Source of the DNA: an uncultured Thermococci archaeon
GTDB taxonomy: Archaea > CAYQAE01 > CAYVLA01
Length of the DNA stretch: 64,000 nt
Reading direction: 5' to 3'
Assembly: GCA_964549615.1 (NCBI GenBank)
Contig: CAZJVP010000101.1
Span: 36,168-100,167, forward strand
The notes beneath the pieces were generated by a model. That model was not told the origin of the DNA. It did not search any database and saw only the letters and a program-made list of their open reading frames with translations. The number at the start of each line of letters is the position of its first letter. The first letter of the stretch is position 1. Below are positions 7,323 through 53,101 of the stretch, piece by piece. A program made the translations under genes and the position numbers.

Positions 7323-8522
7323 ATGAGCCGAAGGTTCGAGGCGTCCCTCCTTTTGATTTTGTTGGCGATGCTGACACTTCGACCCGGCTTAGGCAGGCAA
7401 GCCGCCACCGATCCGGACAGCGGGCGCATCCGGGTGATCTACTTCGGCGACTCATGGGGGGTGTTAAGCCCCTACCAGTACCTCGTCCGCGACCCGATGC
7501 TTGCGGTGACGCCGGTGCCGGCGTCCTCAACCCACCTCGGAGGCGTGCCTAATGCCTCCCGGTACATAAGGCTACACATGCCTAGGACGTTCGAGCTTCT
7601 GACATCTAGGTTCGACGTCATCATCCTGAGCGACACCGTCAAGGCCTACTACACCCCGACGCAGCTGAACTGGTTCAGGGACGCGGTGAAGGATCGCGGC
7701 CGGGGTCTGCTGATGGTGGGCGGAAGGGAGGTGCAGACGGGTGAATGGTGGGCCAACCCTGTCGAGGAAGCCCTGCCGGTGGACTGGGTTCCGGGACAGA
7801 CCTACGAGAAGCTCTTCAGGGCCTACCCAACGGACCTTGATAGCGCGTTCCTCAAGTCGCTGCCGTGGGACAGCCTGCCGCCCTACCTTGGCATGAACCT
7901 TGCCAAGCTTAAGTCCGGGGCAAGCCTCCTTTTGCGATCCGACGTGCAGGACTACCCGGTCTTGGCTTTCTGGGAGTATGGAAGCGGTGCCGGCGTGGCC
8001 CACACCCCGGACTGGACCCCTGCTTGGGGTGGGCAGATCTGGCAGTGGGAGTTCTACGGCGATTTCGTGGCAAACCTCATGTATCTCGCTTCCGGCGCAG
8101 AGATCCCGGCGGATCCTTTGATGATGCGGGACATCAGGGAGGAGTTCTACCGCTTCGACATACAGCGCGGGATAATTACAGGGATGCTGGAGTTCGTCGA
8201 GAAGTTTGGGGCAAACGTCGGCCCCCTCGAGGACAAGCTCTTGGAGATCGACGCCGCGAAACAGGAAGCGACGCGCCTCTACGTGAAACAGGAGTACGGA
8301 CAGGTTCTGGAAACGATGAGGGCCGCCAGAGCCGAGCTTGACGGCGTTCTCGACCTTGCGCTTATGACCAAGGACAGAGCCCTGCTCTGGATCTACATCT
8401 CGGAGGCGATGGCCGTGACCGGCACTTCCTTGGTCTGCGGCATCGCGATATGGCTTCTCATGGTCAGGCGTAGGCTCTACAAAGCCGTGGGGACTACCCG
8501 TATGCTCGGCCGGGCCAGTTGA
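7323..8522 (+). CDS. Membrane-anchored GATase-like (DUF1355-like) protein, paralogue 1 of 5
   Basis: Signal peptide, GRIRVIYFGD, RLHMPRT, FDVIILSD, GRGLLMVGG, PVLAFWEYGSG, FGAN stalk, KDRALLWIY..E..TM..LMVRRRLY tail. Confidence 0.8.
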   Translation: MSRRFEASLLLILLAMLTLRPGLGRQAATDPDSGRIRVIYFGDSWGVLSPYQYLVRDPMLAVTPVPASSTHLGGVPNASRYIRLHMPRTFELLTSRFDVIILSDTVKAYYTPTQLNWFRDAVKDRGRGLLMVGGREVQTGEWWANPVEEALPVDWVPGQTYEKLFRAYPTDLDSAFLKSLPWDSLPPYLGMNLAKLKSGASLLLRSDVQDYPVLAFWEYGSGAGVAHTPDWTPAWGGQIWQWEFYGDFVANLMYLASGAEIPADPLMMRDIREEFYRFDIQRGIITGMLEFVEKFGANVGPLEDKLLEIDAAKQEATRLYVKQEYGQVLETMRAARAELDGVLDLALMTKDRALLWIYISEAMAVTGTSLVCGIAIWLLMVRRRLYKAVGTTRMLGRAS

Positions 8523-9174
8523 GCGCGGTCCAGACGGCGCTTTTGCCTCCGGTTCATGCGCCGGATAAGTGTCCTGAACCCGGCGGAGGCCTCGGTTGGA
8601 GTCGGGTGGGAAAGCCATCGACCCTGCCTTTCGCGTGGGGACGTCAGGGTGCATTGGGCCTGCCCTGCGGCCAGCGGGCCGAGCGCTCAGGTCACGCACT
8701 CCCGTGCATCTACCTCTTGGTCTTCAGGTTGGATATCGCCACGGGCCCAGCGACAAGCAAAGGCAGGCAGGCCGCAGGCACGCGGGCGCATGGGTCAAGG
8801 GATATCACGGACCATGATCCCTTCAAATCTTCTAGGGAGTCCATCGGCGCTCCGGCCACGACCGGCGGTAGAGCACCATGTACCCCGTTCGCTTGCCGGA
8901 GGAACGACGTCCACGTGCAGAAGGCGGATGTCCCCCACAGCCCTGCCTGCTGATGCCACGCCGATCAGGGTCGTCCCAACCGCTGCAAGCACGAAGCTGG
9001 CGGGCTGTGGCGGGGCATCACCATGTAGATGAGGGTCGGCGGAATCATGAGGTAGATCGTGGTGAGCGCCACGGACTTGCTGCTCGCCCGGTCAGCCGTC
9101 CATCCCCAAAGGTATGCGGAGAGCAGCCCAGCCTTTCGACGCGTCGGCGTTCGATCTTGGCCAGATGGCGCTGG

Positions 9175-9420
9175 TCAATCCCATCTTTCCGGATACAGAG
9201 TCCTATAGCCCGGGAGAAGGATGCTTGCGACGAATCCAAGCTCGCCGATGTGCTGACAGATCCTGTCGGCCCATATGCGCTTCCTCTCCGGGTTGCCGTT
9301 GGCGGCAACATCGAGCACGTAGGTTCTGTGTCTGGGGGACTCGCCCGCTATCCTTCCGTAGCCTTGCAGGGCGCTCCTGACATGCGGGCCCATTTCGCGG
9401 ACCTCGACGATGATTCTCAA
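9175..9420 (-). CDS. Small hypothetical protein
   Basis: 81-aa ORF with protein-like alpha/beta composition, co-oriented 37 nt downstream of the nitroreductase. Confidence 0.35.
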   Translation of the reverse strand: MRIIVEVREMGPHVRSALQGYGRIAGESPRHRTYVLDVAANGNPERKRIWADRICQHIGELGFVASILLPGYRTLYPERWD

Positions 9421-9457
9421 GCCAACCGCCGACCCTGAGAAATCGATCTGGCGGGGA

Positions 9458-9952: not shown

Positions 9953-10228
9953 CCCTTCACGCCTCCGAAGCTCGTGCGTTATGGCCTCCTCGTCGGGTGT
10001 AGATCTCGCCGTCACACGGTCGTCGTTGCGGCACGCAACCTATCGTTTCCGTCTCTTAAAACTGATTGCGGAGGGGCTCGCCTTATCGGGCCGGTCCTAG
10101 CGCCTAGGCTTGAGCTCACCTTGCAAAAGCAGTTCATCGCGCAACACGGATTCCTACCTCTCACTCCTTGGGGACGGGCAATTCCTGGGTCGAGGAAGAT
10201 TTAAGATGCCGCTGACGACTGGCTTAAC

Positions 10229-12330: not shown

Positions 12331-13701
12331 TCAGTTTCTTCTGCACACCAATCTTGCGCATACCAGCAGCAAGGGAGCGATCCAGAGCAGCTCGGGGATG
12401 GGAATGACGCACCAGTTCTGCGAGTTGTGCTGCATCTGTGGCCAAGGCATCTTGGTGGCGTCGTACTTGCCGCCAAGAGTTACGCAGTAGAAGTCGTCGC
12501 CGTCGAACTTGAACAGGATCTCGGTCTTGCCGTCCTTATCGACATCCGCAAGACAGACCCCGCTCTCGGCCCTGTCGTTCTGGCGTAGCTTGGTCGTGTT
12601 GAATATCGCTTGGACGTTGCCTCTGTTGTCTAGGACATACAGGCAAGGAGCGACCATGACGACGTCCACCTGTCCGTCGCCCGTCACATCCCCAAACACC
12701 TGGTAGTTGCCCCAGTGCGCGGGATAGGCGGGTTTGAACTTCCACTTGGTCTTCCCCGTGAAGCAGTCCACGCAGTAGGCCATGTAGTTGCTCATGAGTA
12801 CGGTTTCCATGTGTCCGTCGTTGTCGATGTCTCCCAGCGGGATGTCGAATCTGAACTTCTCGTCTCCGGGCATTGTGTCCGCTGTCCAGTGCCACAGCTC
12901 GGTTCCGAAGTAGGAAACGCAGTAGAGCCTCCCCTCGTCGTTGGGGGCCAGGATCTCGTACTCACCGTCATTGTTCACATCGGCCACGACTGCGGTGTTG
13001 CTCTGGAACTTCCCGCCGGTGGGGAACCTCCACTTCTCCTGCCCCGTTGCGGCGTTGTAACAGTAGATATTGGTGTCTTGGCACAGGGCGATCAGCTCGA
13101 CCTGCCCGTCCCGATCGACATCGACCACGGTCGGGTGGCATTCGAACGATCCCCCCGCCTCGGGAGACTTCCAGAAAAGGCTGCCAGTGTGGGTCAGCGC
13201 ATAGATGTGTCTATCGTCCTCCGGGAAGAAGACCTCCATATATCCGTCGCCGTTTACGTCGTAGGCCTCTGGCGTATCCTCTATGGAGTCCCCGGTGGGG
13301 CCGTACTTCCAGATGAGCTGCCCCGTGTTGCTGATGCAGTAGACCATCCTGTCCCTCGCCCCGATCAGTATCTCGACCTTGCCGTCCTTGTTGATGTCGG
13401 CTATGGTTGGCTTGGCCAGGGACTGTCCGATCGGGTCTGTGCCAAGGGGCGGATACAGCCACTTGATCGATCCGTCGTCCTTGAAGCAGGCAAGCCTGCC
13501 CTCGTTCTTCCTGTAGCAGAACAATATCTCGTTCCTGCCATCGTTGTCTATGTCGTATACGTTCGGCGAGGAGTGATGGGACTGTACCAAGTTCTGGGCT
13601 GTCAGGTCAACCGACCATTTCACCGTAACATCCAGAGCTGCTGCCATCGCCAGACATGCGAACAGAACTGTTCCCAGCGCTGCGATTGCCAGTTTCCTCA
13701 T
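12331..13701 (-). CDS. Secreted FG-GAP/VCBS (DxDxDG)-repeat beta-propeller with IPE-TM-RR tail
   Basis: Signal peptide MRKLAIAALGTVLFACLAMAA; repeats DIDNDGRNEI, DINKDGKVEI, DVNGDGYMEV, DVDRDGQVEL, DVNNDGEYEI; ends VIPIPELLWIAPLLLVCARLVCRRN. Confidence 0.85.
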   Translation of the reverse strand: MRKLAIAALGTVLFACLAMAAALDVTVKWSVDLTAQNLVQSHHSSPNVYDIDNDGRNEILFCYRKNEGRLACFKDDGSIKWLYPPLGTDPIGQSLAKPTIADINKDGKVEILIGARDRMVYCISNTGQLIWKYGPTGDSIEDTPEAYDVNGDGYMEVFFPEDDRHIYALTHTGSLFWKSPEAGGSFECHPTVVDVDRDGQVELIALCQDTNIYCYNAATGQEKWRFPTGGKFQSNTAVVADVNNDGEYEILAPNDEGRLYCVSYFGTELWHWTADTMPGDEKFRFDIPLGDIDNDGHMETVLMSNYMAYCVDCFTGKTKWKFKPAYPAHWGNYQVFGDVTGDGQVDVVMVAPCLYVLDNRGNVQAIFNTTKLRQNDRAESGVCLADVDKDGKTEILFKFDGDDFYCVTLGGKYDATKMPWPQMQHNSQNWCVIPIPELLWIAPLLLVCARLVCRRN

Positions 13702-13763
13702 TTTACACACCCTTAGCCGCCCTCACGCTGGTAGCAGCGAGAGAGCAAGCCCGGCGGTAAGGC

Positions 13764-14972: not shown

Positions 14973-16652
14973 TCAGGCCTCCATCCGGTATCTTTCGAAC
15001 TTCCTTAGAAGCCTCCTCCAGACCAATCCCTCCATCGACAGGACTATGGCCGCCATGATGCCAAGGAGCAGGACGAGGAGCACGGTGTTTCCGTACTCGT
15101 ACCCGGCCCTGGACAGGTAGGAGCCCAAGCCGGCCACAGCGAGCGGCTTGCCGTTCTCGGCCGATTCATACGGCATGTACTCGGAGTAGATTATGGTGTT
15201 CCAGCCAGTCCCCCAGGAGAGCAGGCTGCCCGTGACGATTGCCGGCAGGATCGCGGGGATGACGAGGTGGGTAACCTTCCTGAGACCCCTGAGGCCGAAG
15301 ATGAGCCCGACCTCGTTCAGCTCGCTCGGGATGTTCTTCACCGCGCTGACGACGTTGAGGAACATATACCATATCATGTCCAAAACGAGGACTGTTATCG
15401 CCGTGAGCTCAAGCCCCACGGTCCGGCCGAAGATGCCGCTCAGGATCTTGAACATAACAGGGAAAAGGGCAAGTATGGGGACTGCCTGTCCAACATCGTA
15501 CATCGGGTAGAATATCGCGGCGAACTTCTTGTTCTCGGCGGCCAGTACTCCCATCGCGAGCGCCAGAACCAGGGAGACCACGTAGGCAATTCCCAGCCGG
15601 CCCATGGTCAGCGCAACGTACATGGGAAGCCTGCCTAGCTCGTCGGCGGGCGGATCGGACAAGCCCTTTCGAATCGTGTCAAGGCTCGGCAGCCTCCTGG
15701 ACGCCGCGACAATTCCAGAAGCCACGATCGACATGACGAGGACGACCGCGATGGCCTTCTCCAGCCTCGAGTATCTCCTTAGCCTTTGGGACGCAGCAGA
15801 CAGCGAGCGAGGCCAGTGGATCCTATCCCCGACGTGCAACCATCTCCTAACCCCGAGGTTCTTCACGATCCCGAGCTGCCCGACGCCTGAGAGATCCAGC
15901 CTAACCAGTGGCTTGTACGTGCCCCTAGTTGCCCGATCCATCAATGTGTGCCAAGTGAAGGAGTTGATGTAGAGGACGAGCGCGGTGATCAGGGCCAGGA
16001 GCACAACCGCAAGCGTCAGATCGTTGTAGACGTAGGAGGCCTTTGCAAGATACATCCCGAGGCCCGGCACGGAGTAGGCTGTGCCCGCATATTGTATGTA
16101 CTCAGCTGCTATCATGAAGAACCAGCCGTCGCACCAGGCTAGGCATGCACCCGCGACCACGGCTGGCGCGATCGCAGGCAGGATCACGTGCCTTACGTAG
16201 CTGTAGCCTTTCAGCCCGAAGGTCTTGGACGATTCGACCACGTTTGCCGGTATTGCCTTCACGGCCCCGACCACGCCGAAGAAGATGGCCCACGCCATGG
16301 AAGTGAAGAGCAGCACGATCGCCGCCAGCTCAATCGCCAGCTCGCTGGCCTTGAACATCGATATGAGTAACATGATGACCGCGGGGAAGTATCCAAGGAT
16401 GGGGATTGATTGGAGGAGGTCTATGAAGGGTATGAGGACGAGGGAGGCGATCCTGTTTGTGGAGGCCAGGATCCCGAAAGTTATCCCCCAGACGAGCGAG
16501 ATAGCCAAGGTCAAGGTTATCCTTAAGAGCGTCCTGAACGTGTAGTAGGGAAGGGAATCGATCTCCGGGTTCTGGATGAACCTCATCACTAGCCAGTACG
16601 CAAGGACTATGCCGACGAATCCGAGCAGGAATCCCGCAACTCGTCTGTTCAT
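14973..16652 (-). CDS. NitT/TauT-family ABC transporter permease with two fused TM domains
   Basis: Two BPD_transp_1-like halves (LQSIPILGYFP and GQAVPILALFP) with EAA-like loops (VKAIPANVVESSKTFG, VKNIPSELNEVGLIFG). Confidence 0.9.
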   Translation of the reverse strand: MNRRVAGFLLGFVGIVLAYWLVMRFIQNPEIDSLPYYTFRTLLRITLTLAISLVWGITFGILASTNRIASLVLIPFIDLLQSIPILGYFPAVIMLLISMFKASELAIELAAIVLLFTSMAWAIFFGVVGAVKAIPANVVESSKTFGLKGYSYVRHVILPAIAPAVVAGACLAWCDGWFFMIAAEYIQYAGTAYSVPGLGMYLAKASYVYNDLTLAVVLLALITALVLYINSFTWHTLMDRATRGTYKPLVRLDLSGVGQLGIVKNLGVRRWLHVGDRIHWPRSLSAASQRLRRYSRLEKAIAVVLVMSIVASGIVAASRRLPSLDTIRKGLSDPPADELGRLPMYVALTMGRLGIAYVVSLVLALAMGVLAAENKKFAAIFYPMYDVGQAVPILALFPVMFKILSGIFGRTVGLELTAITVLVLDMIWYMFLNVVSAVKNIPSELNEVGLIFGLRGLRKVTHLVIPAILPAIVTGSLLSWGTGWNTIIYSEYMPYESAENGKPLAVAGLGSYLSRAGYEYGNTVLLVLLLGIMAAIVLSMEGLVWRRLLRKFERYRMEA

Positions 16653-23166: not shown

Positions 23167-24384
23167 TCACCGCAATCGGATTTCCGCCCGAAGTTCACCC
23201 GGTCCGGGGGCGAGGTGGAATTTGCTCCGGGTTTCGCTGCCCCTAGCTCTGACCGCTATGCGGTAGGTGCCGTGGAATCCCCTGAACCGGAAATTGCCCG
23301 ATGCATCGGTTCTGCCCTTTGCACAGGTCTTCCACCGGCCGTGAATGAGCCGACGAAGGGCGTCGTAGACGGGTTTGGGACTGAGGTCCTCGCGAAGCAT
23401 CCCGCCGCCCTTGAGCCACGAGCCGCGATCACACAGGTCCCACCACGTGATCGCCACGACGGCAGGGTGTGCAAAACAGACGGTGTAGAACTTGACCGCG
23501 TAGTCGGCCTGGGCGGCCTCGTCCCACCTTCCCCTAAGGTGTGATCCGGTTATCAGCTCCCCTCCCGAGGTCGGCGTGAACTCGGTTATGTGAAGATCCT
23601 TGCCCAAGGCTGCATACTGGTCCAGGACGCTCTGCACCTGATCTAGGGGAAAGCGCATCGTCCGCGGCTCGTGAGCCTGTATGCCGATTCCGTCGAAGGG
23701 GACTCCCCTTTGCATGGCCTCCTTGAGCATCTGCAGGAAGGGTGGAAACCCGTTCGCCATAACCTCGAAGTCGTTGACGATGAGATGTGCCTTGGGGTCG
23801 GCCTCCCGCGCCCAGCGATACGGCTCGTCGATCTGAATTCCTCTGCAGTGGGAGGGCTCGTTCACGACCTCCCAGAATCCTATCTTCCCGGCGAACCGCT
23901 TGATGATCTCTGTGACGCGCCTTCTCTGGACATCCTCGGGGGGTTGGCCCGAAGCCCAGGTCGGCCGGCCGGCCTCGTGGTCCCACAGCAGCGGATGGCC
24001 CTTGAGGTGGATGCCGTTTCGCCTGCACCAGGAGACGACCTTGTCGGTGTAGGCATAGTTCGGTTTCCCCTGTTCGGGCTCGTACCACCTCCAGTAGAAG
24101 CCCACCGTCGCGTAGTTGAACAGCTCCTTGAACAGCTTCTTGTAGAGCCGGTTCTCGCGGGTTGTGTTGAACCGATCGAACATGTAGATGTTGCATCCGA
24201 AAAGGAAATCGTGGCTGAGCTGCTCGATGTCTATCGAGGCGTCGGCGACAGGTTGCCCCGTTTCATCCAATACTATCACCGAGGCGTTCCTCTTGCGGTT
24301 CCTCTCGATCGCCCTAGCTGCTCTTCTGAGGATCCGATCCTCGACGTCCTGCGCCCTTCGCGCCGCATCATTGCTCGACCCCAT
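23167..24384 (-). CDS. GH10 endo-1,4-beta-xylanase-like enzyme, no signal peptide
   Basis: LKGHPLLW, WEVVNEP (acid/base), DGIGIQAH, LHITEF (nucleophile), PKPVY. Confidence 0.88.
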   Translation of the reverse strand: MGSSNDAARRAQDVEDRILRRAARAIERNRKRNASVIVLDETGQPVADASIDIEQLSHDFLFGCNIYMFDRFNTTRENRLYKKLFKELFNYATVGFYWRWYEPEQGKPNYAYTDKVVSWCRRNGIHLKGHPLLWDHEAGRPTWASGQPPEDVQRRRVTEIIKRFAGKIGFWEVVNEPSHCRGIQIDEPYRWAREADPKAHLIVNDFEVMANGFPPFLQMLKEAMQRGVPFDGIGIQAHEPRTMRFPLDQVQSVLDQYAALGKDLHITEFTPTSGGELITGSHLRGRWDEAAQADYAVKFYTVCFAHPAVVAITWWDLCDRGSWLKGGGMLREDLSPKPVYDALRRLIHGRWKTCAKGRTDASGNFRFRGFHGTYRIAVRARGSETRSKFHLAPGPGELRAEIRLR

Positions 24385-24848
24385 CGCCAACCACCGCGGT
24401 GCAACCCTTACGCAGAGAAATGCCATTCACTGGCGATTGCTGCCATGTATGGGCCAGAGATAAGTTTACTCCAAGGGGCCGATTAGCAGGAACTGCATCG
24501 ATTGGACTGCACAGCGGTCTAGGTCCAAATACGGCAAGACGGCGGCTGATGTCCAGACACCGAGGGAAGGCACCGGCCTCCCGCCGAATGCGTCAACTGG
24601 CTGACCGCTTCATCTTGGTCCGTTCGGGCTCCGGCTATGGGGGATCGCGGCGTCCCATCGGACGGCAGAACGACAAAAGCACAACCGCTCGAATCCTGTG
24701 GAAGGAGGCCATTGGTGTTGTTATGTGGCCCGTCCCATCCGCCTAAGCCATCCATGGAACCTTTACATATCCTTGGGTCAGCGTCGCGTGATGCTGTCGG
24801 CATGGGAAGACAGGCTCACACGCGTCTTGGTCACGTGGGTGGGTCGGA

Positions 24849-26918
24849 ATGGGAATCGAGATCTCCGAGGACAAGGTGCAGCTGTCGGGCAGAGGCATCC
24901 GGGTTGCCCTCCGCAGCCATGAGGGTAGTTGGTATCTCTCTTGCCTTGAGGACGGGTCTGGCAGGCTGCTGGTGAGCGGTTCGCACAGTGGGTCCCTCTG
25001 GGCGTTGAGGGCCAACACGGAGGGAAAGCTCGTCGAGGCAACCAGCCAAGGCCTAACCTCAAGCGTTCGACCGGCCGGAGCGTCGTCCATGGAGATAGCC
25101 TGGCCCGCCTTCAATTTCATGGGCTCTGAGTGCAACGCCCGGCTCAGGCTGTCCTTGGTCTCATCGGTATTGATCTGTGCCAAGCTGGGCTTCCGTTTCA
25201 ACCCGGCGATCGCTCTCTGGGAGGTAGACTTCCCCATACTCGAGGGCCTGAACCCCGAGAATGCAACGCTTTACGCCCCCTACGGCTACGGGAAGGCGAT
25301 CCCTTACGGAGGGGGCACGCGGTACAGGGGCACCTATCCAAGCCATCACTGCGCCATGCAGTTTCTGGCTTGGAACACCGGCCCGGCCAGCCTCTACGTT
25401 GGCTGCCACGACCCGTGTGCCTCGACGAAGACGTTGGAGTTTTCGCCCCAGCCTCCCACGTTGCGCTGTACGCTTCCGGTTGCCGGCATGGGGGACGATT
25501 TTGCGCGTTACGAAGTTCCATATCCCGTAGCGGTGGGAGCCATTCCGGGGGACTGGTATGATGTGGCGCTTTTCTACAGGAGGTGGGCGATGAGGCAGTC
25601 ATGGTCCAGGGCTCGTCCCCTTGCGTCCAGGCCAACGCCCAGGGCTTTGAAGGACGTTGCGCTGTGGTGCTGCGCATCCGGAGCCCCGGGCGAAGTGGTG
25701 CCAAAGGCCTTGCAGTTTGCACGCTACTTCGGGGTGGCCACCGCCCTGCACTGGTACGTCTGGCACGAGATACCCTTTGACGATCATTACCCCGAATACT
25801 TCCCCGCCAAGGAAGGGTTCAAGGAGGCAATCGCAAAGCTTGGCGCAGCTGGGATCCTCGTGATGCCCTACATCAACGCGCGGCTCTGGGACCCTGCAAC
25901 CGAGAGCTGGAGCCGGGAAGGGGCCGAAAGCGCCGCAGCGAAGGATGCCGACCTCAAGAAGTATACTGAGGTCTACGGCTCGAAGGTGCCGCTATCGCCC
26001 ATGTGCCCCACAACCCAGCTTTGGGGCCGGAAGATCAGAAGCATAGTGAAGAGACTTGCGTCGGAGTACCGGGTCCACGGGGTCTATCTCGACCAGATAG
26101 GCGCCGCTGCGCCGAAGCTCTGCTTCGACCGCGGCCACGGGCACCCGGTCGGAGGCGGCGATTGGTGGGTCAGGGGGTACAGGGATATCCTGGAGAAGGT
26201 GCGCAGAGATGTCCAAGGCATCAACCCCGAGTTCTTCATCACGACCGAGTCGAATGCCGAGCCATGGAACGATCTGCTTGACGCCTTGCTCATGTGCAAC
26301 TCCACCGAAGGGGAGCTCGCACCGATCTACCCGGCCGTCTATGCCGATCGGGTCCTGATCTTCGGCGCGTACATATTCCGCCGGGACCTAGAGGACTCTT
26401 GGGCGTTCAGGGTGAAGGTTTCACAGATGTTCCTGTGGGGCACCCAGCTCGGTTGGCTGGGGTTCGACGTCTTGGAGCCGAGGTTTCAACGGGAAGCCGA
26501 GTACCTCAGGTGTCTGGCACACGCCAGATCGTCGACAAGCCTCCTTTCCGGCGGCGAACTGCTCAGGCCGCCACGACCGGACCCGGAGGTGGACATGGTC
26601 GAGGCAAGCTGGGAGCTTTGGGGAAGGACGTGGAACGTCCGCTTGCCCGCGGCGCAGGCGACCGCGTGGCGCGGCCCGGACGGCTCCGTCGGGGTTGTGG
26701 CCTGCAACATGGGGGATGCCAGCACCGATCTGCGGGTTAGTTTGGACATCGCAGAGCTTGGTTGGACCAAGGCGAAGGCATTCCGCATGATGGAGCGCAC
26801 GCAGCTTGGATCGGCCAATCCGTCCCTTGACGGAAAGGCTCTTTGCCTAAGGCTGGAGCTGCCGCCTAGGTGTGCTCGACTGGTGAGCTCAACGGACGCT
26901 CAAGCCGAAGGCGCGTGA
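24849..26918 (+). CDS. DUF6259-like glycoside-hydrolase-like protein
   Basis: GDWYD..YRRW, HWYVWHEIPFDDHYPEYFP, MPYINARLWD, MCP, GVYLDQI, TESNAEP. Confidence 0.7.
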   Translation: MGIEISEDKVQLSGRGIRVALRSHEGSWYLSCLEDGSGRLLVSGSHSGSLWALRANTEGKLVEATSQGLTSSVRPAGASSMEIAWPAFNFMGSECNARLRLSLVSSVLICAKLGFRFNPAIALWEVDFPILEGLNPENATLYAPYGYGKAIPYGGGTRYRGTYPSHHCAMQFLAWNTGPASLYVGCHDPCASTKTLEFSPQPPTLRCTLPVAGMGDDFARYEVPYPVAVGAIPGDWYDVALFYRRWAMRQSWSRARPLASRPTPRALKDVALWCCASGAPGEVVPKALQFARYFGVATALHWYVWHEIPFDDHYPEYFPAKEGFKEAIAKLGAAGILVMPYINARLWDPATESWSREGAESAAAKDADLKKYTEVYGSKVPLSPMCPTTQLWGRKIRSIVKRLASEYRVHGVYLDQIGAAAPKLCFDRGHGHPVGGGDWWVRGYRDILEKVRRDVQGINPEFFITTESNAEPWNDLLDALLMCNSTEGELAPIYPAVYADRVLIFGAYIFRRDLEDSWAFRVKVSQMFLWGTQLGWLGFDVLEPRFQREAEYLRCLAHARSSTSLLSGGELLRPPRPDPEVDMVEASWELWGRTWNVRLPAAQATAWRGPDGSVGVVACNMGDASTDLRVSLDIAELGWTKAKAFRMMERTQLGSANPSLDGKALCLRLELPPRCARLVSSTDAQAEGA

Positions 26919-37505: not shown

Positions 37506-37624
37506 ATATCCGGGCCATCCTGCCGCCTGATAAATAGCAAAGCCAACGGCCGGACCGGCGGACGCCCCACGAATTCCACGGAAAACGTTTTCTGCGTGCG
37601 CCCGCTCGCTTCGGCGGGAGTCCG

Positions 37625-39055
37625 ATGGACGGAAGGGATCTTGCCGAGTACGCCGTGGAACTCGGTCAAAGCCTGGGCGCCAGTTACACGGAGGCCAGAT
37701 TCGTCAGGGAGGTAACCGAGGGTTTTTCGACGCGAAACGGCAGCTTGCTTTCGGCCGGAAAGCAGGAACGTGCAGGACTGGGGATCCGGGTCCTTGTAGA
37801 CGGCAGTTTCGCATTCTGTTCGACGGACGAACTGACCAAAGCCTCCCTCAGGCGTTCCCTCGGTGCTGCTGTCAGGGCGGCGCGGGCCAGCAAGAGGAGG
37901 GATCCTGTGGTGCTCTCGGAGGAAGAGGTCCACGAAGACCGCTGGGCGACGCCGGTGAAGCAGAATTTCGACGACGTGGACCGGGACGCCAAGATCGAGC
38001 TGCTCAGGGGGCTGGACAAGGATCTCTCCTCGCTGCCCGGCAAGATCCCTGTCAGGAACCTGTCGCTTGATCTTGTGCAATGGGACAAACAGGTTCTGAC
38101 GAGCGACGGGACCGTGGTCGACGGGTTCTACTCGCTTTTTTCCCTTTACGTCATGTTCCAGGCCGAGGCTGACGGGCGCTCCGAGCAGAGGCGTCTGGGC
38201 ATCGGCGGCACGGGGGGATGGGAGTGGGCAACCGAGAGGGGCATCCGTGAGAAGGTGGTCTCCGATGCTTCGAGAACTCTCAGGGTCGTGTCGGAAGCCA
38301 AGCGGGTTAATCTCGGGAAGGCCGACGTGATCATCGGGCCAGAGGTCGCTGGCATCGTGGCTCACGAGAACTGCGGGCATCCCTCGGAGGGGGACAGGAT
38401 CTTGGGGCGCGAGGCTGCCCAGGCGGGGGAATCCTGGTACCAGGACCTGGTGGTGGGTGAGTCGAGGATAGGCAGCGAGGCCCTGACCATAATTGACGAT
38501 CCGACGATTCCGGGCAGCGCGGGCTACTACCTTTACGACGACGAAGGGGTGAAGGCTAGGCCTAGGTACCTCATCAAGAACGGGATTCTGAACGAGCTTC
38601 TCCTGAATAGGCAGTATGCACGAAGGTTCGGCACCCACTCCACGGCCGCGGCCAGGGCCATCGGCTACGACCGCGAGCCGATCATCAGGATGGCGAACAC
38701 CTACATTGCCGAGGGCGACCACTCTGAGGAAGAGCTTGTGGAGGGGGTAAAGCGCGGGCTGCTGATGAACAGCTTCACCGAGTGGAACATCGATGATCGC
38801 CGTTTCCAGTCCAAGTACGTCGGCTCGGAGGCCATTCTCATCCGGAACGGCAGGCTCACCGACACCTACGTCCGGAGGCCGGTCCTGGAGCTGACGACGA
38901 CCGCCCTCTTCAGGAGCGTCGACGCCTGCGCCAAGGGATTTGCCGCCGACTTGGCGTCGTGCGGGAAGTCGGAGCCGATGCAGGCTGCCCCGGTGTGGAC
39001 CGCGGGGCCCTCAGCGGTGAGGCTGAGAGGGGTCAGGGTGGGGGTGGGGCTATGA
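37625..39055 (+). CDS. tldD: TldD-family metalloprotease, catalytic subunit
   Basis: GLGIRVL, HENCGHPSEGDR (HExxxH), DDPT..YDDEG, IIRMANTY, CGK..Q..PV. Confidence 0.9.
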   Translation: MDGRDLAEYAVELGQSLGASYTEARFVREVTEGFSTRNGSLLSAGKQERAGLGIRVLVDGSFAFCSTDELTKASLRRSLGAAVRAARASKRRDPVVLSEEEVHEDRWATPVKQNFDDVDRDAKIELLRGLDKDLSSLPGKIPVRNLSLDLVQWDKQVLTSDGTVVDGFYSLFSLYVMFQAEADGRSEQRRLGIGGTGGWEWATERGIREKVVSDASRTLRVVSEAKRVNLGKADVIIGPEVAGIVAHENCGHPSEGDRILGREAAQAGESWYQDLVVGESRIGSEALTIIDDPTIPGSAGYYLYDDEGVKARPRYLIKNGILNELLLNRQYARRFGTHSTAAARAIGYDREPIIRMANTYIAEGDHSEEELVEGVKRGLLMNSFTEWNIDDRRFQSKYVGSEAILIRNGRLTDTYVRRPVLELTTTALFRSVDACAKGFAADLASCGKSEPMQAAPVWTAGPSAVRLRGVRVGVGL

Positions 39056-40416
39056 AGGACTTGGATGGGCTGATCGATGCCGCGCTCCGTGCTGCCGGCT
39101 CAGCGACGGATGTCATCGTCAAGTGCACGACCTCAAGGGATTGGCAGATCAGGTTCTGCAACAGCCAGATAGAGATCTCGAACCAGTGGGTCTCCACAAA
39201 GATGGACGTGTTCGTAGCGGTCGGACGCAGGGTGGGCTCGACCGAGATCGAGGCGCCGACCGCAAAAAAGGTGAGGACGAGGGTGGCCGAGCTCGTCGCC
39301 TGGACTTCGAGCATGGCAGAGAGCCAACTTTACGGTGGGATATCGGACAAATCCTACAGACACCGAACCCTAAAAGATCTGATCGATCCCGAGATCGACG
39401 GCTTCGCGGAACAGGCGCCTTTTATGGTTCGTCTGGCGGTAGAGGCTGCCGAGGAGCAGGGCGCAAGAAAGGTCGCCGGGTCCCTTATGTTCGGCAGGCG
39501 CCGGCACGATCTGGCGACCAACCATGGGGTTCGGGCAACCTACGAGGAGTCGTCGTACGACCTGAACATCAGGAGCTTTGCGGACTCCGAGAGTTCGGGC
39601 CAGGGCCTGGCCAGCGGCCGGAAGATATCGAGGGCGGAGGAAAGATTCGTCCGGGCCGCCCGTGAGTCAGGAAGGATCGCGAGGATGTCGATGGGAGGAA
39701 CCCAGGGCCGCCCCGGCAAGTACGATCTCTTGATGGGCCCGACCGTTGCGGCCAACCTGCTGGGACAGCTGGCCGAGTCGGCCAACCCCCTTCTGATGAT
39801 GCTGGGTTCAAGCCCGCTGAAGGGACGCCTCGGGGCGCAGCTTGGTCCAGAGGTCCTGTCCGTTGTGGACGATCCGAGCATTGCCGAGGGGTTGGGGTCA
39901 AGGCCGTTTGACGACGAAGGCGTCCCATGTCGGCGTGTTAAGGTTTTCGACCGGGGCAGGTTCGTCGGACTCCTGCACAGCACGACGAGTGCAAGGCAAG
40001 CCGGCACCCGGACGACCGGGAGCAGCCGGCTGCTCAGCCTGGGACGGTCGAAGATCCCGGCCCCGTGGGCGAGCAACCTGGTCTTCGCCGCCGGGGGGGC
40101 CCGGACGGAGGAGATGGTGGAGGAGTGCAGGAGGCCGACGATCTACGTGACATCGAACTGGTATACGCGGTTCTCAAACTACGAAGAGGGCACCTTCTCG
40201 ACGATTCCCAGGGACGGCATCTTCCTCATCGAGGGGGGCCAGATCAAGAAGCCCCTGCGCAGGATCAGGATCTCCGACAACATCGTCGGGCTTCTCTCTC
40301 GGATCGAGCAGGTCGGAAGCGACGTCACGCAGGTCCACTGGTGGGAGGTTGAGACACCCACGTTCATCCCTCACATTAAATTCTCGGACGTCAACGTAAC
40401 GGCGGCCACGATGTAG
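39052..40416 (+). CDS. PmbA/TldE-family partner subunit
   Basis: ATGA overlap with the tldD stop; PGKYDLL, DDP..PFDDEG, no HExxxH. Confidence 0.85.
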   Translation: MKDLDGLIDAALRAAGSATDVIVKCTTSRDWQIRFCNSQIEISNQWVSTKMDVFVAVGRRVGSTEIEAPTAKKVRTRVAELVAWTSSMAESQLYGGISDKSYRHRTLKDLIDPEIDGFAEQAPFMVRLAVEAAEEQGARKVAGSLMFGRRRHDLATNHGVRATYEESSYDLNIRSFADSESSGQGLASGRKISRAEERFVRAARESGRIARMSMGGTQGRPGKYDLLMGPTVAANLLGQLAESANPLLMMLGSSPLKGRLGAQLGPEVLSVVDDPSIAEGLGSRPFDDEGVPCRRVKVFDRGRFVGLLHSTTSARQAGTRTTGSSRLLSLGRSKIPAPWASNLVFAAGGARTEEMVEECRRPTIYVTSNWYTRFSNYEEGTFSTIPRDGIFLIEGGQIKKPLRRIRISDNIVGLLSRIEQVGSDVTQVHWWEVETPTFIPHIKFSDVNVTAATM

Positions 40417-40672: not shown

Positions 40673-42637
40673 ATGCACCCGGGAGTGGCCGACCGCGGAC
40701 ACCCTACCTACGCCCTCGATCCATCACGCCTCGGGCCCCTCGTCGAGGACGCGTGGCCTTGCCTCTTCTTCGGCAGGGAAAGGATGGCCGAGATCAGGCG
40801 AAAGATTGCCCTCCTGGGATGGGCCCGGTCTCTTTACGGCAGGATGCTAAGCGAGGCAAGGCAGTTGTTGGAATCTCCCTGCCTGTTGTATCCGGGCCGG
40901 CCCGGATGGAGGCATGATTTCTATTCACCGCGCACCGGGGCCCACTTGGTCTTTGATCCAAGACAGCCCGAGGCCTTCAGGGATCCCGCAGACGGGTCGC
41001 TCGTGACGGGCGAGACCCACAGGGCGGCCTGGGTTCTCCTTGAGCACGAAAGGCTGTACCGTCTCATGCGCAGCGTTGCAGTGCTCTACCGACTGACCGG
41101 CAAGCAGCAGTACTCGGACTGGGTTGCCGAGGGAATTCTGGGTGCTGCGGACTTCTTCCAACACGCAGAAAGAAGGGGTCGCTACGGCACGGTCTATTTC
41201 CAACCGCTGTACGACGCCCAGGTGATCACCCTTCTGGCAAATGCGTACGACCTGATCCGGGATAGCTGGTCTCTGGAGGCTTGGGCCCACGAACACATAA
41301 GGAAGGCGCTGTTTCAGTCAGGCTCATCCGGCTTGCTCAAATACCTGCGCGGGGCGAGGGCACACAACATAACCTGCTACGTTGCCGCAGCGGTCGGGAC
41401 CTTGGGCGCCATCCTCGATGAGCCTGACCTCTTGTGGATGGCGCTATCGGAGGAGGAGACCGGTTTGCAGGGCCTGCTCAGAAAGGGTTTGCGCAGGGAC
41501 GGGCAGGGCCGCACGGATGGCACCTGGTATGAGGGTACAACCTTCTATCACCTGTACGCCATGTGCCCGCTTTTCTGTCTCTACGAGCTTGCGAAGCGAT
41601 GGGGCTTGGACGGTGCCGCCCTCTCGGAGATACACGACGCCCTGATAGCAATGGCGAGGGTCCCGGTCCTTCTTGCGGATGAGCGCCTGCGGCTACCTTG
41701 GCTTGGAGATCTGGGCTTCCCGGAGCATCCCGGCTTGACAAGCTTCGCCCACCTTTACGAGTACGCCGCAGGGATGCTTGACAGGACATTCCTTGCCGTT
41801 CTTCGCGCGTGCGAGGCTGGTCAAGGCCGGGCCGGCTTGGCCGCTCTAAGCTTTGGTCCCGACCGTCTCTCCAGTCCTTTACGGCACGAGCCATCCTCGC
41901 TCTTGGGCCAGGGCGGAATCGCGGTCCTAAGGGCGGCCACTAGACGGGGGCACTACTACGCGTTGCTCAAGGCCGGGACGCACGGCGGGGGCCATGACCA
42001 TCGCGACAAGCTACAGGTGGTCTTCCACGCGATGGGGGAGGTCATCGCTCCAGACCTTGGGACGGCGGGATACTCGTTGGAGGATTTCAAGCTCTACTGC
42101 GCCAGCACCCTTGCGCACAACGCTCTGCTGGTCGATGAGTTAGATCAATCCCCCGTTGCCGATGCGGGCGTTTCGATGGACTCCGCGTCTTCGGCCAGCG
42201 GCGTGGTCCGCGACGCCTACCCCGGGGTTTGCCTGGAGAGGAGGGTCATGCTTGATCCGCCCCGCATCTTGGTCGATGACGCGTTCTCCTCGGCCGCGGG
42301 ACACCGCTATTGTTGGGTCTTCCATGCCAAGGGCAAACTTGACGTAGAAGTCCATAGGGCCCGCACGCCATTGGAGCTTCCTCCGCTCCCCTGTGAGGGA
42401 CCCTTCCGGTTCTTCCGTAGCCGGGTGGAGATGGGGACGGTTCGAAGGGCGTCGGCGAGGTGGACGATTAGGAGAGATCTGAGTCTTCTTTGCGATGTCC
42501 GGTGGGATGGACCGTTCGAGTGCACGATCGGAACGACGCCTAGCAACCCGATGACCTCTTCTCTCGGGACGATGTTTCTGCGTTGCCCCGGGAGGCGAAG
42601 GCGGGCACGGGCGGCATTCAGGCTCGCCTTTCACTGA
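40673..42637 (+). CDS. Heparinase II/III-family polysaccharide lyase-like protein
   Basis: AHNI, DGTWYEG..YH, HGGGHDHRDKL, DLGTAGY, STLAHNALLVD. No signal peptide. Confidence 0.8.
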   Translation: MHPGVADRGHPTYALDPSRLGPLVEDAWPCLFFGRERMAEIRRKIALLGWARSLYGRMLSEARQLLESPCLLYPGRPGWRHDFYSPRTGAHLVFDPRQPEAFRDPADGSLVTGETHRAAWVLLEHERLYRLMRSVAVLYRLTGKQQYSDWVAEGILGAADFFQHAERRGRYGTVYFQPLYDAQVITLLANAYDLIRDSWSLEAWAHEHIRKALFQSGSSGLLKYLRGARAHNITCYVAAAVGTLGAILDEPDLLWMALSEEETGLQGLLRKGLRRDGQGRTDGTWYEGTTFYHLYAMCPLFCLYELAKRWGLDGAALSEIHDALIAMARVPVLLADERLRLPWLGDLGFPEHPGLTSFAHLYEYAAGMLDRTFLAVLRACEAGQGRAGLAALSFGPDRLSSPLRHEPSSLLGQGGIAVLRAATRRGHYYALLKAGTHGGGHDHRDKLQVVFHAMGEVIAPDLGTAGYSLEDFKLYCASTLAHNALLVDELDQSPVADAGVSMDSASSASGVVRDAYPGVCLERRVMLDPPRILVDDAFSSAAGHRYCWVFHAKGKLDVEVHRARTPLELPPLPCEGPFRFFRSRVEMGTVRRASARWTIRRDLSLLCDVRWDGPFECTIGTTPSNPMTSSLGTMFLRCPGRRRRARAAFRLAFH

Positions 42638-42716
42638 TATGCCTCTGCGTCTCCATTCGGCGTGCGGAACCTTTTTCACCATTCGTCCCAATCCGCGGGG
42701 CACGGGCGAAGCTGGT

Positions 42717-48505: not shown

Positions 48506-48733
48506 ATGAAGACATACCTTCTCGTCTTCCATTCAAGCGAGGGCGCGCCGCCCTCCGAGGTCGTGGAGCGCATAAAGTCGGTCGGATTCAAGGTGATGAA
48601 GGGTTACTATGATTTTGTTTACGAGTGGGAGGAGCAGGAAAACGTGGAGGAGGTCGTGAAGATCGCAGACGTGCTCCACACGGTGCTCAAGGGGACCGGC
48701 ACGACCTTCAAGCTCGAGACGACTCCGGACTAG
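48506..48733 (+). CDS. Small conserved-looking archaeal hypothetical protein (ferredoxin-like alpha/beta pattern)
   Basis: MKTYLLVFHSSEGAPPSEVVERIKSVGF..GYYDFVYEW; own TATA box; typical codon usage. Confidence 0.7.
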   Translation: MKTYLLVFHSSEGAPPSEVVERIKSVGFKVMKGYYDFVYEWEEQENVEEVVKIADVLHTVLKGTGTTFKLETTPD

Positions 48734-50978: not shown

Positions 50979-51061
50979 TGGGTCGGGCCTTTTGTTGGGT
51001 TTGCCTGCCCTAGGCTCGATGGGCCAGCGACAACGAAGGCTTTATCCACCCGGCCATCATC

Positions 51062-51853
51062 GTGGCAACGGGTGTCGATGTGAAGATTTCCATATCGGCA
51101 TACAGCCTGCACCGAGAGATAGGGCAAGGCAACATATCGATGTTGGACTTCATCGGAATCGCCTCGGAAAGGTACGGGGTGCACGCCGTCGAGCTGAACT
51201 CCCCGTTTTTCGAGAGTACGCCCGGCTACCTCACGCGGCTCAAGCAAGCTCTGGACGAGCACGGCGTGGCGGTTCAGAACATTGCCGTTGATCTCGGCAA
51301 CATCGCTGACCCGGACGAGTCCAAGAGGATCGACTGGGTGAACAAGAACGCTGCCTGGCTGGACGTTGCCAGGAGGATAGGGTGTCGGTCCATAAGGGTC
51401 AATGCTGGGCATGCCGAGGACGGGGAGGCCGGCCTGATGCGGTCGATCGACAGCTACAGGAGGATCGTGCGGCGGGCCAAGAGGCTGGGGATGACGGTCC
51501 TCTTGGAGAACCATGGCGGGTACAGCTCGGATCCCGACAGCATCCTGAAATACGTGTCGGTCCTTGGCACTGCGAACTTCGGCGTCTGCCCGGACTTCGG
51601 CAACTTCGAGCCCGGCATTAGGTACGAGGCCTTGGAGAAGATCGCGCCGTACGCGAAGTTCGTCCACGGGAAGACCTACGAGTTCGACGCCGAGGGAAAC
51701 GAGACGACCCTAGACATACCGAAGATCATCAAGATCCTGGAGCGCGCCCGCTACAACGGATATGTATCGGTCGAGTACGAGGGCCGCGGAGATGAGTACG
51801 AGGGAATAGCATCGACGATCGCGCTTCTGCGCAGGTGTGGGCTGGAACTCTGA
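51062..51853 (+). CDS. Sugar phosphate isomerase/epimerase (TIM barrel)
   Basis: AYSL, AVEL, LLENHGG, PDFGNF, VHGK, VSVEYEG. Confidence 0.85.
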   Translation: MATGVDVKISISAYSLHREIGQGNISMLDFIGIASERYGVHAVELNSPFFESTPGYLTRLKQALDEHGVAVQNIAVDLGNIADPDESKRIDWVNKNAAWLDVARRIGCRSIRVNAGHAEDGEAGLMRSIDSYRRIVRRAKRLGMTVLLENHGGYSSDPDSILKYVSVLGTANFGVCPDFGNFEPGIRYEALEKIAPYAKFVHGKTYEFDAEGNETTLDIPKIIKILERARYNGYVSVEYEGRGDEYEGIASTIALLRRCGLEL

Positions 51854-51892
51854 GGGACGAGCAAGCCCGAGCACGCATCGGGGCGCTGGGAA

Positions 51893-53101
51893 TCAGTAGG
51901 CCCTCGTTGTCGTGACTTCCTTGTATAGCCTTCTCCTGATCATGAGCGAGTATAGGGCGAAACCGGCTAGGACCGACGTGCCGCTCACCACTGACCACTC
52001 CGTGAGGTAGACCCAGAAGAGGGCCCTCTCCTTGAGGACAATCGCCTCCTCGTTGAGCTTGGCCAGGCCGTCGGCCATTCCCCTTATCTCTTCGTAACAG
52101 GCCTCGTAATCGCCCTCCATGTAGAGCCGCTCGGCCTCCTCCTTTCCATCATCGGCCTGTGCGATCTTCCTTTCAAGCCCGGCGGTGTTTGCCCCAAACC
52201 GGTCGACGAACTCAAGGACCGCGAGGACCAGCTTCTTCTCGACGTTAAACCGGAAGAAAGCATCCCTTACGGAGTGGATGAGCTCGATGCTTGTCGGAAG
52301 CGTCTTGCCGACGGAATAGTAGAAGATGTTGAGGATTATGTCGCCTCCGTATCGGTTGCCCACGCCCATGCTGAACCATTGTTCGTCAACATCCACCCCC
52401 ACTACCCAGGTCTCGGCCCCCCTTTCGCCGAATGTCCAGGAGATCATGTACTCGTCCTCCATGGAACCCAGAACGCCACTCTTTACCGCCCATGCCCAGA
52501 CCTTGCTTCCCTGCTTGGGGTGCATTGGCCTGGTCTTGGAACCCGCGAACCTTTCGATCCCGAGCGGTATGAATGGGGTCAGGACGGGCGGGTTGCTCCT
52601 CTCCACGCGGATGCGATAGGCTAGGTTGTCGGACGACTCGAAGCTGGGCGAAAACTCCTGAGGGTAGACCTCTGCAAGCTCCGACTCGACCAGCGACAGA
52701 TATCCTTCGCTGTCTGGCCAAAGCGTGAGCAGGGAGGAGACGCCCAGCTCGACGGAATCCCTGAACCTTCGCATCTCCGCGCCGCTGAACCACTCCATCC
52801 GGGGCTCAAGGAGCAGGAGGACGTCGTAAGCCTGCAGGAGCCTGTCAAGTGTTCGAGGGGTGTAAATTCGGGTGATCTTCTTGGCCGCCTCGTCGCTCAT
52901 CACGCCGCCGACATCGGTCGGGAGTTCCTGCCACTGAACCGCAAAGTCCAAGGACAGCCAGCCAAGTATGGGCGATTCCCCGTAGCTTGTGTCCCCGATG
53001 CAGAGGACGCCGATCTTCCCCGTGGAGGCGAAGTGGGGCGGCTTGGCAAGGCAGGCTGGGGCGACAAAAAAGACGCAGACGAGAAAGGCCAGAGCCCGCA
53101 T
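51893..53101 (-). CDS. Membrane-anchored GATase-like (DUF1355-like) protein, paralogue 5 of 5
   Basis: Signal peptide MRALAFLVCVFFVAPACLA, GKIGVLCIGD, RIYTPRT, YDVLLL, FGAN, KERALFWVYLTEW..LMIRRRLY. Confidence 0.8.
   Translation of the reverse strand: MRALAFLVCVFFVAPACLAKPPHFASTGKIGVLCIGDTSYGESPILGWLSLDFAVQWQELPTDVGGVMSDEAAKKITRIYTPRTLDRLLQAYDVLLLLEPRMEWFSGAEMRRFRDSVELGVSSLLTLWPDSEGYLSLVESELAEVYPQEFSPSFESSDNLAYRIRVERSNPPVLTPFIPLGIERFAGSKTRPMHPKQGSKVWAWAVKSGVLGSMEDEYMISWTFGERGAETWVVGVDVDEQWFSMGVGNRYGGDIILNIFYYSVGKTLPTSIELIHSVRDAFFRFNVEKKLVLAVLEFVDRFGANTAGLERKIAQADDGKEEAERLYMEGDYEACYEEIRGMADGLAKLNEEAIVLKERALFWVYLTEWSVVSGTSVLAGFALYSLMIRRRLYKEVTTTRAY

Follow-up and report, generated by a model that had tools for sequence, protein, structure and literature searches.

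The window analysed here is a stretch of 64,000 nucleotides from the genome of an uncultured Thermococci archaeon (contig CAZJVP010000101.1 of assembly GCA_964549615.1, positions 36,168 to 100,167), and it carries five dispersed genes for putative surface proteins, which we refer to as family F. Two public DNA sequencing runs that contain this sequence are labelled hot springs metagenome, and one of them may be its source; no RNA run was listed. An initial annotation, made from the letters of this DNA alone, had described five paralogues of about 400 amino acids (aa), and the open reading frames (ORFs) are all present where it placed them and contain every motif that it listed. The five copies span 399-425 aa and align from end to end, with 27-36% identity to copy 1, and all five score E 4e-152 or better with a profile built for the family. 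Three of them pass the gathering cut-off of 27 bits of the Pfam family PF07090, while an NCBIfam search returned nothing significant for the family.

Copy 1 (P0001; 7323..8522, plus strand; 399 aa; PF07090 44.9 bits) illustrates the arrangement, in which a signal peptide (~7323-7400) is followed by a GATase1-like head (residues 34-259, 7422-8099), a three-helix stalk (residues 260-349, 8100-8369), a membrane helix containing Glu361 (residues 356-381, 8388-8465) and a basic tail (residues 382-399, 8466-8519), all on the plus strand. Copy 2 (P0002; 21828..23087, minus strand; 31.4 bits) encodes 419 aa when read from the ATG at 23087, its ORF staying open up to a GTG at 23198, and its nearest paralogue, at 65% identity, lies on contig C48. 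Copy 3 (P0003; 27153..28397, plus strand) encodes 414 aa and scores 42.6 bits. The start of copy 4 (P0004; plus strand, ending at 43916; 18.4 bits, below the cut-off) may be the ATG at 42639 (425 aa) or a position near 42717 (399 aa), of which the latter suits the family alignment better; this copy is the best match of the family profile in the whole genome. Copy 5 (P0005; 51893..53101, minus strand; 402 aa) has no Pfam match and is recognised by the family profile at E 4e-152.

Copy number, range and age of the family

The initial annotation had supposed that many more copies would be found genome-wide, and the expansion proved to be far above that guess. The family profile has 148 matches in the genome, and our in-house ORF scan recovered 147; the 126 full-length ones among these have a median of 414 aa. 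When the 3,101 gene calls were clustered all against all, F formed the largest paralogue cluster, with 129 members against 43, 33 and 32 in the next three, so that about 4% of the gene set (126 of ~3,100 called) of this 3.2-Mb genome belongs to a single family.

The range of the family is as narrow as its copy number is high. The GTDB phylum of the source comprises five species genomes, four of them in one family and the fifth in a sister family. A profile of the last 140 residues, which we call the anchor, matches 140, at least 150 (among 234 candidates), 149 and 98 proteins in the four genomes of the lineage and none in the sister-family genome, which is 98% complete and shows weak head-only matches. 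Among 36 further archaeal genomes, 33 had no match at all and three had weak head-only matches. The candidate relatives outside the lineage had to be rejected: at the loci of G004, G011 and G028, ORFs of 517-964 aa match only part of the head, and only weakly; two similarly weak matches (E 4.9e-6) were found in G034. When 185,579 species genomes were scanned, the 79 loci recovered all came from three metagenome-assembled genomes (MAGs) titled Candidatus Hadarchaeota archaeon, and among 1.84 billion representative proteins the anchor profile matched 458 at E 0.001 or better. In the best 150 of these 458, the full-length proteins, of ~380-470 aa, all bear the anchor C-terminally, the rest being shorter fragments. 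Similarly, of the 138 anchor matches in the window's genome, 127 come with the head, and the remaining 11 are pieces of F broken by a contig edge or a frameshift. The anchor is therefore private to the family, and both F and its anchor are confined to one family-level lineage of uncultured archaea.

The expansion does not look recent. The identity of a copy to its nearest paralogue has a median of 52% and reaches 70% or more for just 11 of 126 copies, and only four copies have that paralogue within 10 kb of them, which together imply that the expansion is old and dispersed. From the 79 loci of the related MAGs we assembled 30 putative orthologue pairs, 15 of them backed by a syntenic flank, and the syntenic F orthologues are about as similar to each other as their flanking genes are. 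Over the 30 pairs the median nonsynonymous divergence (dN) is 0.25 for the head, 0.37 for the stalk and 0.24 for the helix and tail, with omega values of ~0.15-0.21 that are rough because the synonymous divergence (dS) is saturated; the orthologous heads are under purifying selection. Heads that have diverged between paralogues and are conserved between orthologues point to many old and distinct specificities, rather than to diversification that is still going on. Frameshifted or truncated remnants of F were also seen (C11:125012-126180, C90:77279-78422, C52:38716-39899, C20:118392-118740, C16:8966-9100 and C64:14423-14551), so that some gene death accompanies the old retention.

Heads, membrane helix and tail

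An N-terminal hydrophobic region is present in 122 of the 126 full-length copies and an internal one in none, while a C-terminal helix passes the Kyte-Doolittle (KD) threshold in 113; counted from its first basic residue, the tail has a median of 16 aa (range 12-27). The F proteins are on this basis type I membrane proteins, exported by a signal peptide and showing a GATase1-like head on a short three-helix stalk, the last helix of which passes on through the membrane into a conserved basic cytoplasmic tail of ~16 residues. An AlphaFold2 (AF2) model of copy 1, computed from the family alignment (pLDDT 93.2, pTM 0.87), has the same layout, with a signal-peptide helix, an alpha/beta head (36-257), helices at 265-294, 300-321 and 325-388, the last passing straight across the membrane, and a disordered tail end.

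The conservation along the protein is uneven. The annotation had called the heads very divergent, and their mean pairwise identity over the 126 copies is indeed 24.7%. It had also called the stalk, membrane helix and tail nearly fixed, which holds for the last two (48.8% for juxtamembrane region, helix and tail together, 55% for the tail alone) and fails for the stalk, which at 26.9% diverges as much as the head and conserves only an F-x-E-x-F-G-A-N motif and one Tyr. The intramembrane Glu sits some five residues in from the outer helix end, with Trp and Tyr alongside, and is found in 121 copies, the exceptions being three Gln, one Asp and one Asn. Besides this Glu, the positions W, W, G, M, R, Y and T of helix and tail are each kept in at least 116 copies (W 119, G 116, M 123, R 119, Y 119, T 122), and a further Arg of the tail in 101. 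The helix can be written as an invariant face W..E-W..V..T....G...W..M and the tail as R-R-R-L-Y-R-E-V-x-x-T-R; as the conserved helix positions are spaced by 3-4 residues, they would share one face. Such conservation beneath variable heads could mean that the helix face and the tail link all the heads to a single function in the membrane or cytoplasm, which may be a shared partner or self-assembly. The single membrane partner that had been proposed for all copies would be one form of this, suggested by the conservation.

The same C-terminus invites comparison with the archaeosortase/exosortase domains (PGF-CTERM, PEP-CTERM), which like F combine a motif, one helix and an Arg cluster on exported proteins. 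It could accordingly be hypothesized that the conserved C-terminus is a sorting signal, cleaved by an archaeosortase-like enzyme or an intramembrane protease so that the head is then lipid-anchored or released. The genome does have two genes of the exosortase/archaeosortase family PF09721 (C88:53688-54371 and C51:56558-57319), although their substrates could be the separate, classical short tags ([IV]-P-E, helix and terminal RR) that the genome bears on FG-GAP proteins and others, and there is a very weak NCBIfam match of F to PVV-CTERM (E 0.069, 13 bits). No curated CTERM model passes, however, and no PrsW-type protein is encoded among the 239 nearest non-family genes of the F copies (Pfam, E 1e-6 or better). 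Instead of stopping at the basic cluster, the F tail runs on past the helix for a median of 16 conserved residues, among them the Tyr and Thr counted above, and the module, longer than the PGF-CTERM and PEP-CTERM domains, sits on a single head family and not on unrelated exported proteins. We therefore regard cleavage of this kind as highly improbable.

As a separate observation, three proteins of the window have C-termini that look like archaeosortase-type tags. The FG-GAP propeller proteins at 12331-13710 (minus strand) and 56089-57600 (plus strand) end in [IV]-P-E or A-E-P followed by a hydrophobic helix and RR, and a 346-aa protein upstream of copy 1 (6258-7298, plus strand) ends in VPELPVP, a helix and RRR. 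The idea that proteins tagged in this way are preferred neighbours of F was tried and dropped, with 2 of 16 regular-expression matches next to F (p 0.37) by a strict expression that missed the FG-GAP tags of the window.

A GATase- or DUF1355-like head had been recognised from the start, and this assignment was borne out by the PF07090 scores, by profile and by fold. A 68-sequence family profile matches 2gk3, 3rht and 3soz at E 2.9e-22 to 1.1e-19. In the model of copy 1 the head is a GATase1-like alpha/beta domain, closest in VIA-align to 2gk3 (Z 26.3) and 3rht (Z 25.9), with a root mean square deviation of 1.9 A over 204-205 aligned residues, and the Foldseek match to the solved PF07090 fold has E 3.8e-13. 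These entries are the solved members of PF07090, formerly DUF1355: STM3548 (2gk3), STM1381 (3soz) and a protein of Planctomyces limnophilus (3rht). With them the F head shares a Cys-less G-G-L-L-M-x-G-G elbow, an L-P-V motif and a W-x-[FY]-Y-x-D-x-x-x-N helix. The solved proteins are cytoplasmic, ~250 aa long and present in single or few copies, whereas F is exported, has an R-x-x-R-x-Y-x-P-R motif, is fused to stalk, membrane helix and tail, and exceeds 100 copies per genome.

The absence of Cys from the nucleophile elbow, first read from the window copies (MVGG, MADD, MAGG, WLGS and TLWP), extends to the family. Here the elbow consensus reads G-[LM]-G-L-L-M-x-G-G; none of the seven elbow columns is conserved as Cys, and only seven of the 126 copies have a Cys anywhere in them. 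Judged from the alignment, the F heads lack the nucleophile Cys that catalytic class I glutamine amidotransferases carry, as part of a Cys-His-Glu triad, at the elbow after strand 4. Most of the head positions with at least 80% conservation are Gly, Pro and Trp, joined by R83 (121 copies), Y/H85 (118), R88 (119), D98 (106), D247 and N251, and the R-x-Y-x-P-R motif is not found in the solved bacterial members.

Such a cluster raises the possibility that the heads are enzymes of a new kind on a GATase1-like scaffold, such as hydrolases or transferases whose substrates are polymers at the surface or in solution, in which the paralogues differ in substrate and the R-x-x-R-x-Y-x-P-R...D cluster forms the active or co-substrate site. 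Many enzymes use this fold, the heads are under purifying selection, and glycoside hydrolase and sulfatase genes are modestly enriched next to F (see below), all of which an enzyme would accommodate as readily as the high conservation of the cluster and its absence from the solved relatives. Nevertheless, neither a Cys/His/Glu triad nor any conserved polar residue is found at the nucleophile elbow, and by the predicted secondary structure the cluster would lie ahead of strand 3, at the N-terminal edge of the strands, an unusual place for substrate binding. The literature under the names PF07090, DUF1355, GATase1_like and COG5426 yielded only the Pfam database paper and no activity for any member. 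Taken together, we consider it unlikely that the heads are enzymes.

More distant matches of the head in VIA-align include ThuA-like proteins (Z 15.9) and the N-terminal domain of IFT52 (Z 14.7), and similarity extends to domains without catalytic function in GH42 and in several other carbohydrate-active enzymes. Two further matches are a chain of the human oligosaccharyltransferase (OST) complex (6s7o_G, Z 15.2) and a yeast chain (6c26_B, Z 12.6), which are probably OST48 and Wbp1. In a review, Wbp1/OST48 is described as a non-catalytic OST subunit with a GIFT-type luminal domain, whose single membrane helix is held among helices of Ost2 and Swp1 and for which binding of sugar or lipid-linked oligosaccharide has been proposed (PMC7226087). 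This arrangement offers a precedent for a head of such a fold docked through one helix. The likeness to F covers the type I topology, the GATase1/GIFT-like luminal domain and the single C-terminal membrane helix; at ~9% sequence identity it stands at the level of the fold only, and OST48 differs in having a second luminal domain, no three-helix stalk and a single gene copy. The archaeal enzyme AglB, moreover, is a single-subunit enzyme, and nothing ties F to it except one adjacency on the 3.3-kb contig C61, where an F copy (C61:298-1527) is followed ~0.8 kb downstream by a third, weakly matching STT3/AglB-like ORF (C61:2353-3120; 25 bits).

A similar layout, with signal peptide, head, helical stalk, C-terminal membrane helix and short conserved cytoplasmic tail, is known from the cargo lectin ERGIC-53 and from SlaB-type archaeal stalk proteins. 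Their folds are unrelated to that of F and there is no sequence relation, so that the comparison is an analogy alone.

Sequon avoidance in the ectodomains

Copy 1 contains a single N-x-S/T sequon (N77-A-S) and copies 2-5 contain none. Against expectations taken from per-protein shuffles, the 126 ectodomains (42,160 residues) contain 15 sequons where 117-119 are expected (sd 10; z -10.3), an approximately 8- to tenfold deficit, and 111 of them have no sequon at all. Control tripeptides are just 13-19% low, with 95 observed against 117 expected for S/T-x-N, 153 against 175 for N-x-A/G, 226 against 273 for D-x-S/T and 104 against 127 for Q-x-S/T. The deficit recurs in 63 additional F copies, those of other MAGs included (10 against 68). 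The other putative secreted proteins of this genome, 55 in number, carry 217 sequons against 116 expected, while 200 sampled cytoplasmic proteins are neutral (214 against 223).

Because the cytoplasmic proteins are neutral, the deficit in F means selection. It implies that the ectodomains must meet the oligosaccharyltransferase, for which the genome has two clear AglB/STT3 genes, divergent neighbours on contig C43, and that a glycan almost anywhere on them would be harmful. The deficit would thereby give independent support to an extracytoplasmic location of the ectodomains, and it hints at recognition or close packing over their whole surface. Harm of this kind is what one would expect in receptors that are lectin-like or pack closely; ERGIC-53 itself is a non-glycosylated protein. 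Among the papers listed on sequon depletion in archaea, none dealt with sequon-poor families.

Close packing could also be the whole of the function. If the conserved helix and stalk drove self-assembly of F, its oligomers or lattice might organise the space beneath the S-layer or tether the S-layer, and sequons would be avoided since glycans block packing. The conserved positions would share one helix face and include small residues (the G kept in 116 copies, and T/S), as an assembling helix might, and the depletion covers the whole ectodomain; there are 3-6 chains in the solved PF07090 entries, and the Pfam name of the related GH42 domain marks it as a trimerisation domain. A scaffold, however, needs no 126 old, individually conserved heads at 25% identity, and we hold a purely structural role to be rather unlikely.

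Genomic neighbourhood, a second family and the preferred reading

The annotation had placed copies 2-5 beside glycan-processing genes, which was largely confirmed. Copy 2 lies downstream of, and in the same direction as, a GH10 glycoside hydrolase gene (23167..24426, minus strand; 419 aa; PF00331 139 bits), copy 3 lies 234 nt downstream of a DUF6259 gene (24849..26918, plus strand; 689 aa; 305 bits), copy 4 immediately follows a heparinase II/III-like gene (Hepar_II_III_C; 40673..42637, plus strand; 654 aa; 72.8 bits), and copy 5 adjoins an AP_endonuc_2 gene (51062-51853). The gene at 53192..55813 (minus strand; 873 aa), 90 nt upstream of copy 5, is not the carbohydrate-binding module and glycoside hydrolase it had been taken for, as only CARDB domains were found in it; it encodes a surface protein with a signal-like N-terminus and five sequons. 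By a crude hydrophobicity test, the GH10, DUF6259 and heparinase-like proteins and the products of both AP_endonuc_2 genes of the window lack a signal-like N-terminus.

Genome-wide, we compared the Pfam matches (E 1e-6 or better) of all 239 nearest non-family genes with those of 211 random genes, which were drawn from 38 random 20-kb tiles and lie at least four genes away from every copy. Glycoside hydrolase, polysaccharide lyase and sulfatase genes make up 13 of the 239 neighbours and 3 of the 211 controls (odds ratio 4.0, Fisher p 0.023). A broader glycan set, which adds DUF6259, DUF4838, BNR_2, FG-GAP/lambda-carrageenase-type propellers and HGSNAT, accounts for 24 neighbours and 4 controls, with a p value (3e-4) that is merely indicative because the category was chosen after the first neighbour list had been viewed. 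GH38, GH20, GH29, GH116, GH9, GH10 and sulfatase are among the neighbouring families. Neighbours are annotated less often than controls (108 of 239 against 133 of 211), and a signal-like N-terminus is found in 26% of neighbours, 19% of genes at distance 2-3 and 15% of genes far away (p 5e-4). The placement of F is thus non-random, as had been proposed, and its association with glycan genes is real but weak.

With regard to importers, ABC (ATP-binding cassette) permeases of the BPD_transp_1 type are absent from the 239 neighbours, where ABC-2 permeases occur twice and ABC ATPases four times. The genome as a whole has 13 BPD_transp_1 domain matches at seven loci, or ~7 importers, and three binding proteins of the two families searched. 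One such importer lies in the window, a 559-aa ORF at 14973-16652 (minus strand) with two BPD_transp_1 domains that amounts to a fused permease; no gene for a substrate-binding protein of the two families searched is adjacent to it. No TonB-dependent receptor family was found among the 239 neighbours, and no SusD entry among the fold matches listed.

These counts bear on the proposal, made with the initial annotation, that F proteins are SusD-like or binding-protein-like glycan receptors, each serving the adjacent carbohydrate-active genes and passing substrate to a transporter as interchangeable subunits. SusD-like proteins of the polysaccharide utilisation loci of Bacteroidota share with F the idea of many paralogous surface glycan binders among carbohydrate-active genes, and the four window copies beside glycan-related genes and the 4- to 6-fold enrichment genome-wide would fit. 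The glycan genes, however, are just 5-10% of the F neighbours, from 13 by the strict set to 24 by the broad one, no SusC-type partner was found among these neighbours, and there is no outer membrane. The SusD fold is all-helical, and the GATase1-like head of F is unlike either that fold or the fold of periplasmic binding proteins. Some seven BPD-type importers, none of them with its permease next to F, would have to serve 126 copies, the GH10, DUF6259 and heparinase-like neighbours have no signal peptides, and the gene pairings are unconserved in related genomes. The proposal does not withstand this evidence well and is, in our judgement, quite improbable.

Several further genes of the window and of the genome deserve mention. 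The TldD/PmbA metallopeptidase pair at 37625-39055 and 38959-40416 (plus strand) consists of overlapping ORFs, and a 430-aa ORF on the strand opposite (37430-38722) is probably spurious. At the edge of the window, a large WD40 beta-propeller protein (3-2030, minus strand) runs off the end, being 761 aa in the genome, and its gene adjoins a 325-aa ORF without a family. URO-D-like genes (PF01208) are unusually frequent genome-wide, with 4 of 239 among neighbours and 5 of 211 among controls; the 33-member cluster of ~366-aa proteins could be URO-D-like and may represent a methyltransferase-type expansion unrelated to F.

F is also accompanied by a second lineage-specific family, B, of ~280-aa proteins with 24 members by clustering of the neighbours and 27 by hidden Markov model (HMM). 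B proteins combine a membrane helix at the N-terminus with an ectodomain that forms an Ig-like sandwich (model pLDDT 85.5), and they have no Pfam family and ESM Atlas scores of 0.82 or less; the fold matches a generic Ig-like sandwich, with a best Z of 8.9 and Foldseek TM of 0.24 or less. Fifteen of the 24 B genes adjoin an F gene (hypergeometric p 1.8e-11; 15-16 when all 24-27 copies are considered), and about ten lie directly downstream of F on the same strand, overlapping it or separated by no more than 12 nt. The phyletic pattern is like that of F, with 41, 17 and 23 matches in three related genomes, where F-to-B pairs are also seen, and none in the sister genome. There are no B genes in the window; examples are L137:2061-2900 (C20:191719-192561), L154:7619-8443 and L174:17764-18534. 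B is threefold enriched in sequons (72 against 24 expected), the reverse of F, and the identity matrices of F heads and B correlate over 10 pairs (r 0.51, Mantel p 0.007). The B-linked F copies do not form one clade, requiring 12 Fitch changes compared with 14.3 in shuffles, and a complex prediction for an operonic full-length F copy with its downstream B scored 0.00, which speaks neither for nor against binding.

The interpretation that we favour, though tentatively and as something short of probable, is that F provides non-enzymatic, glycan-free recognition heads on a common docking or assembly module with a shared membrane function. In this scheme the heads would be recognition modules working between the membrane and the S-layer, which diversified long ago, each paralogue now being conserved for its own ligand, and all of them would be linked through the invariant helix face and tail to the function held in common. 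The data themselves show how the proteins are built and folded, that they have no nucleophile, how many copies there are, how narrowly they are distributed and where they are conserved, as well as the depletion of sequons and a weak enrichment beside glycan and secretome genes; that the heads bind rather than catalyse, what their ligands are and that a common partner exists is inferred.

A number of points weigh against it. Ligand, partner and oligomeric state all rest on inference, and the term non-enzymatic rests on absence of evidence, as PF07090 has no member of known function; the family-specific R83/Y85/R88/D98 cluster could be a catalytic site or a site for a common ligand. The gene calls, signal peptides and membrane helices come from crude in-house ORF and hydrophobicity rules, and the rough omega values and the merely indicative p value of the broad glycan set have been noted. 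At least 90% of the F neighbours are unrelated to glycans, and most of the glycan-gene neighbours in the window look cytoplasmic. Orthologues from related MAGs were sampled for copies 1, 3, 4 and 5, and all have other flanking genes (that of copy 3, in L043, at 58% identity). Orientation is not biased either, and an operon rule, by which F would always lie downstream of a variable secreted protein, was considered and rejected, since the genes upstream of F are co-directional in 71 of 119 cases against a background of 58%; the median same-strand gap is 99 nt against 36.

A more elaborate version of the favoured interpretation can be envisioned, for which the chances seem small. Lectin-like heads, free of glycans and more than 100 in number, would have one polymer or glycoprotein each to recognise under the S-layer, all of them plugging via the Glu helix and the Y/T tail into one signalling or uptake machine, with the B proteins as glycosylated co-receptors or ligands. 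The logic would be comparable to that of receptors joined to a common signalling chain via charged intramembrane residues. Such a system would have no described archaeal counterpart. What this analysis adds is the full count of F, together with the statistics on its neighbours, the comparison of orthologues, the depletion of sequons and family B, and the papers listed on glycoside hydrolases and polysaccharides in Hadarchaeota included nothing on the F family.

The family matters first for its size, as about one gene in 25 of a polymer-degrading lineage is given over to it. Its old, individually conserved paralogues may be the best handle on PF07090, a family with three solved structures and no known function. 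The near-total avoidance of sequons beside sequon-rich neighbours is a strong and easily tested signature. Should it prove to be a mark of surface proteins that recognise glycans or assemble tightly, this statistic could serve to pick out their counterparts in other archaea. Finally, the sharing of one helix and tail by more than 100 different heads makes the identity of its reader in the archaeal membrane a testable question.

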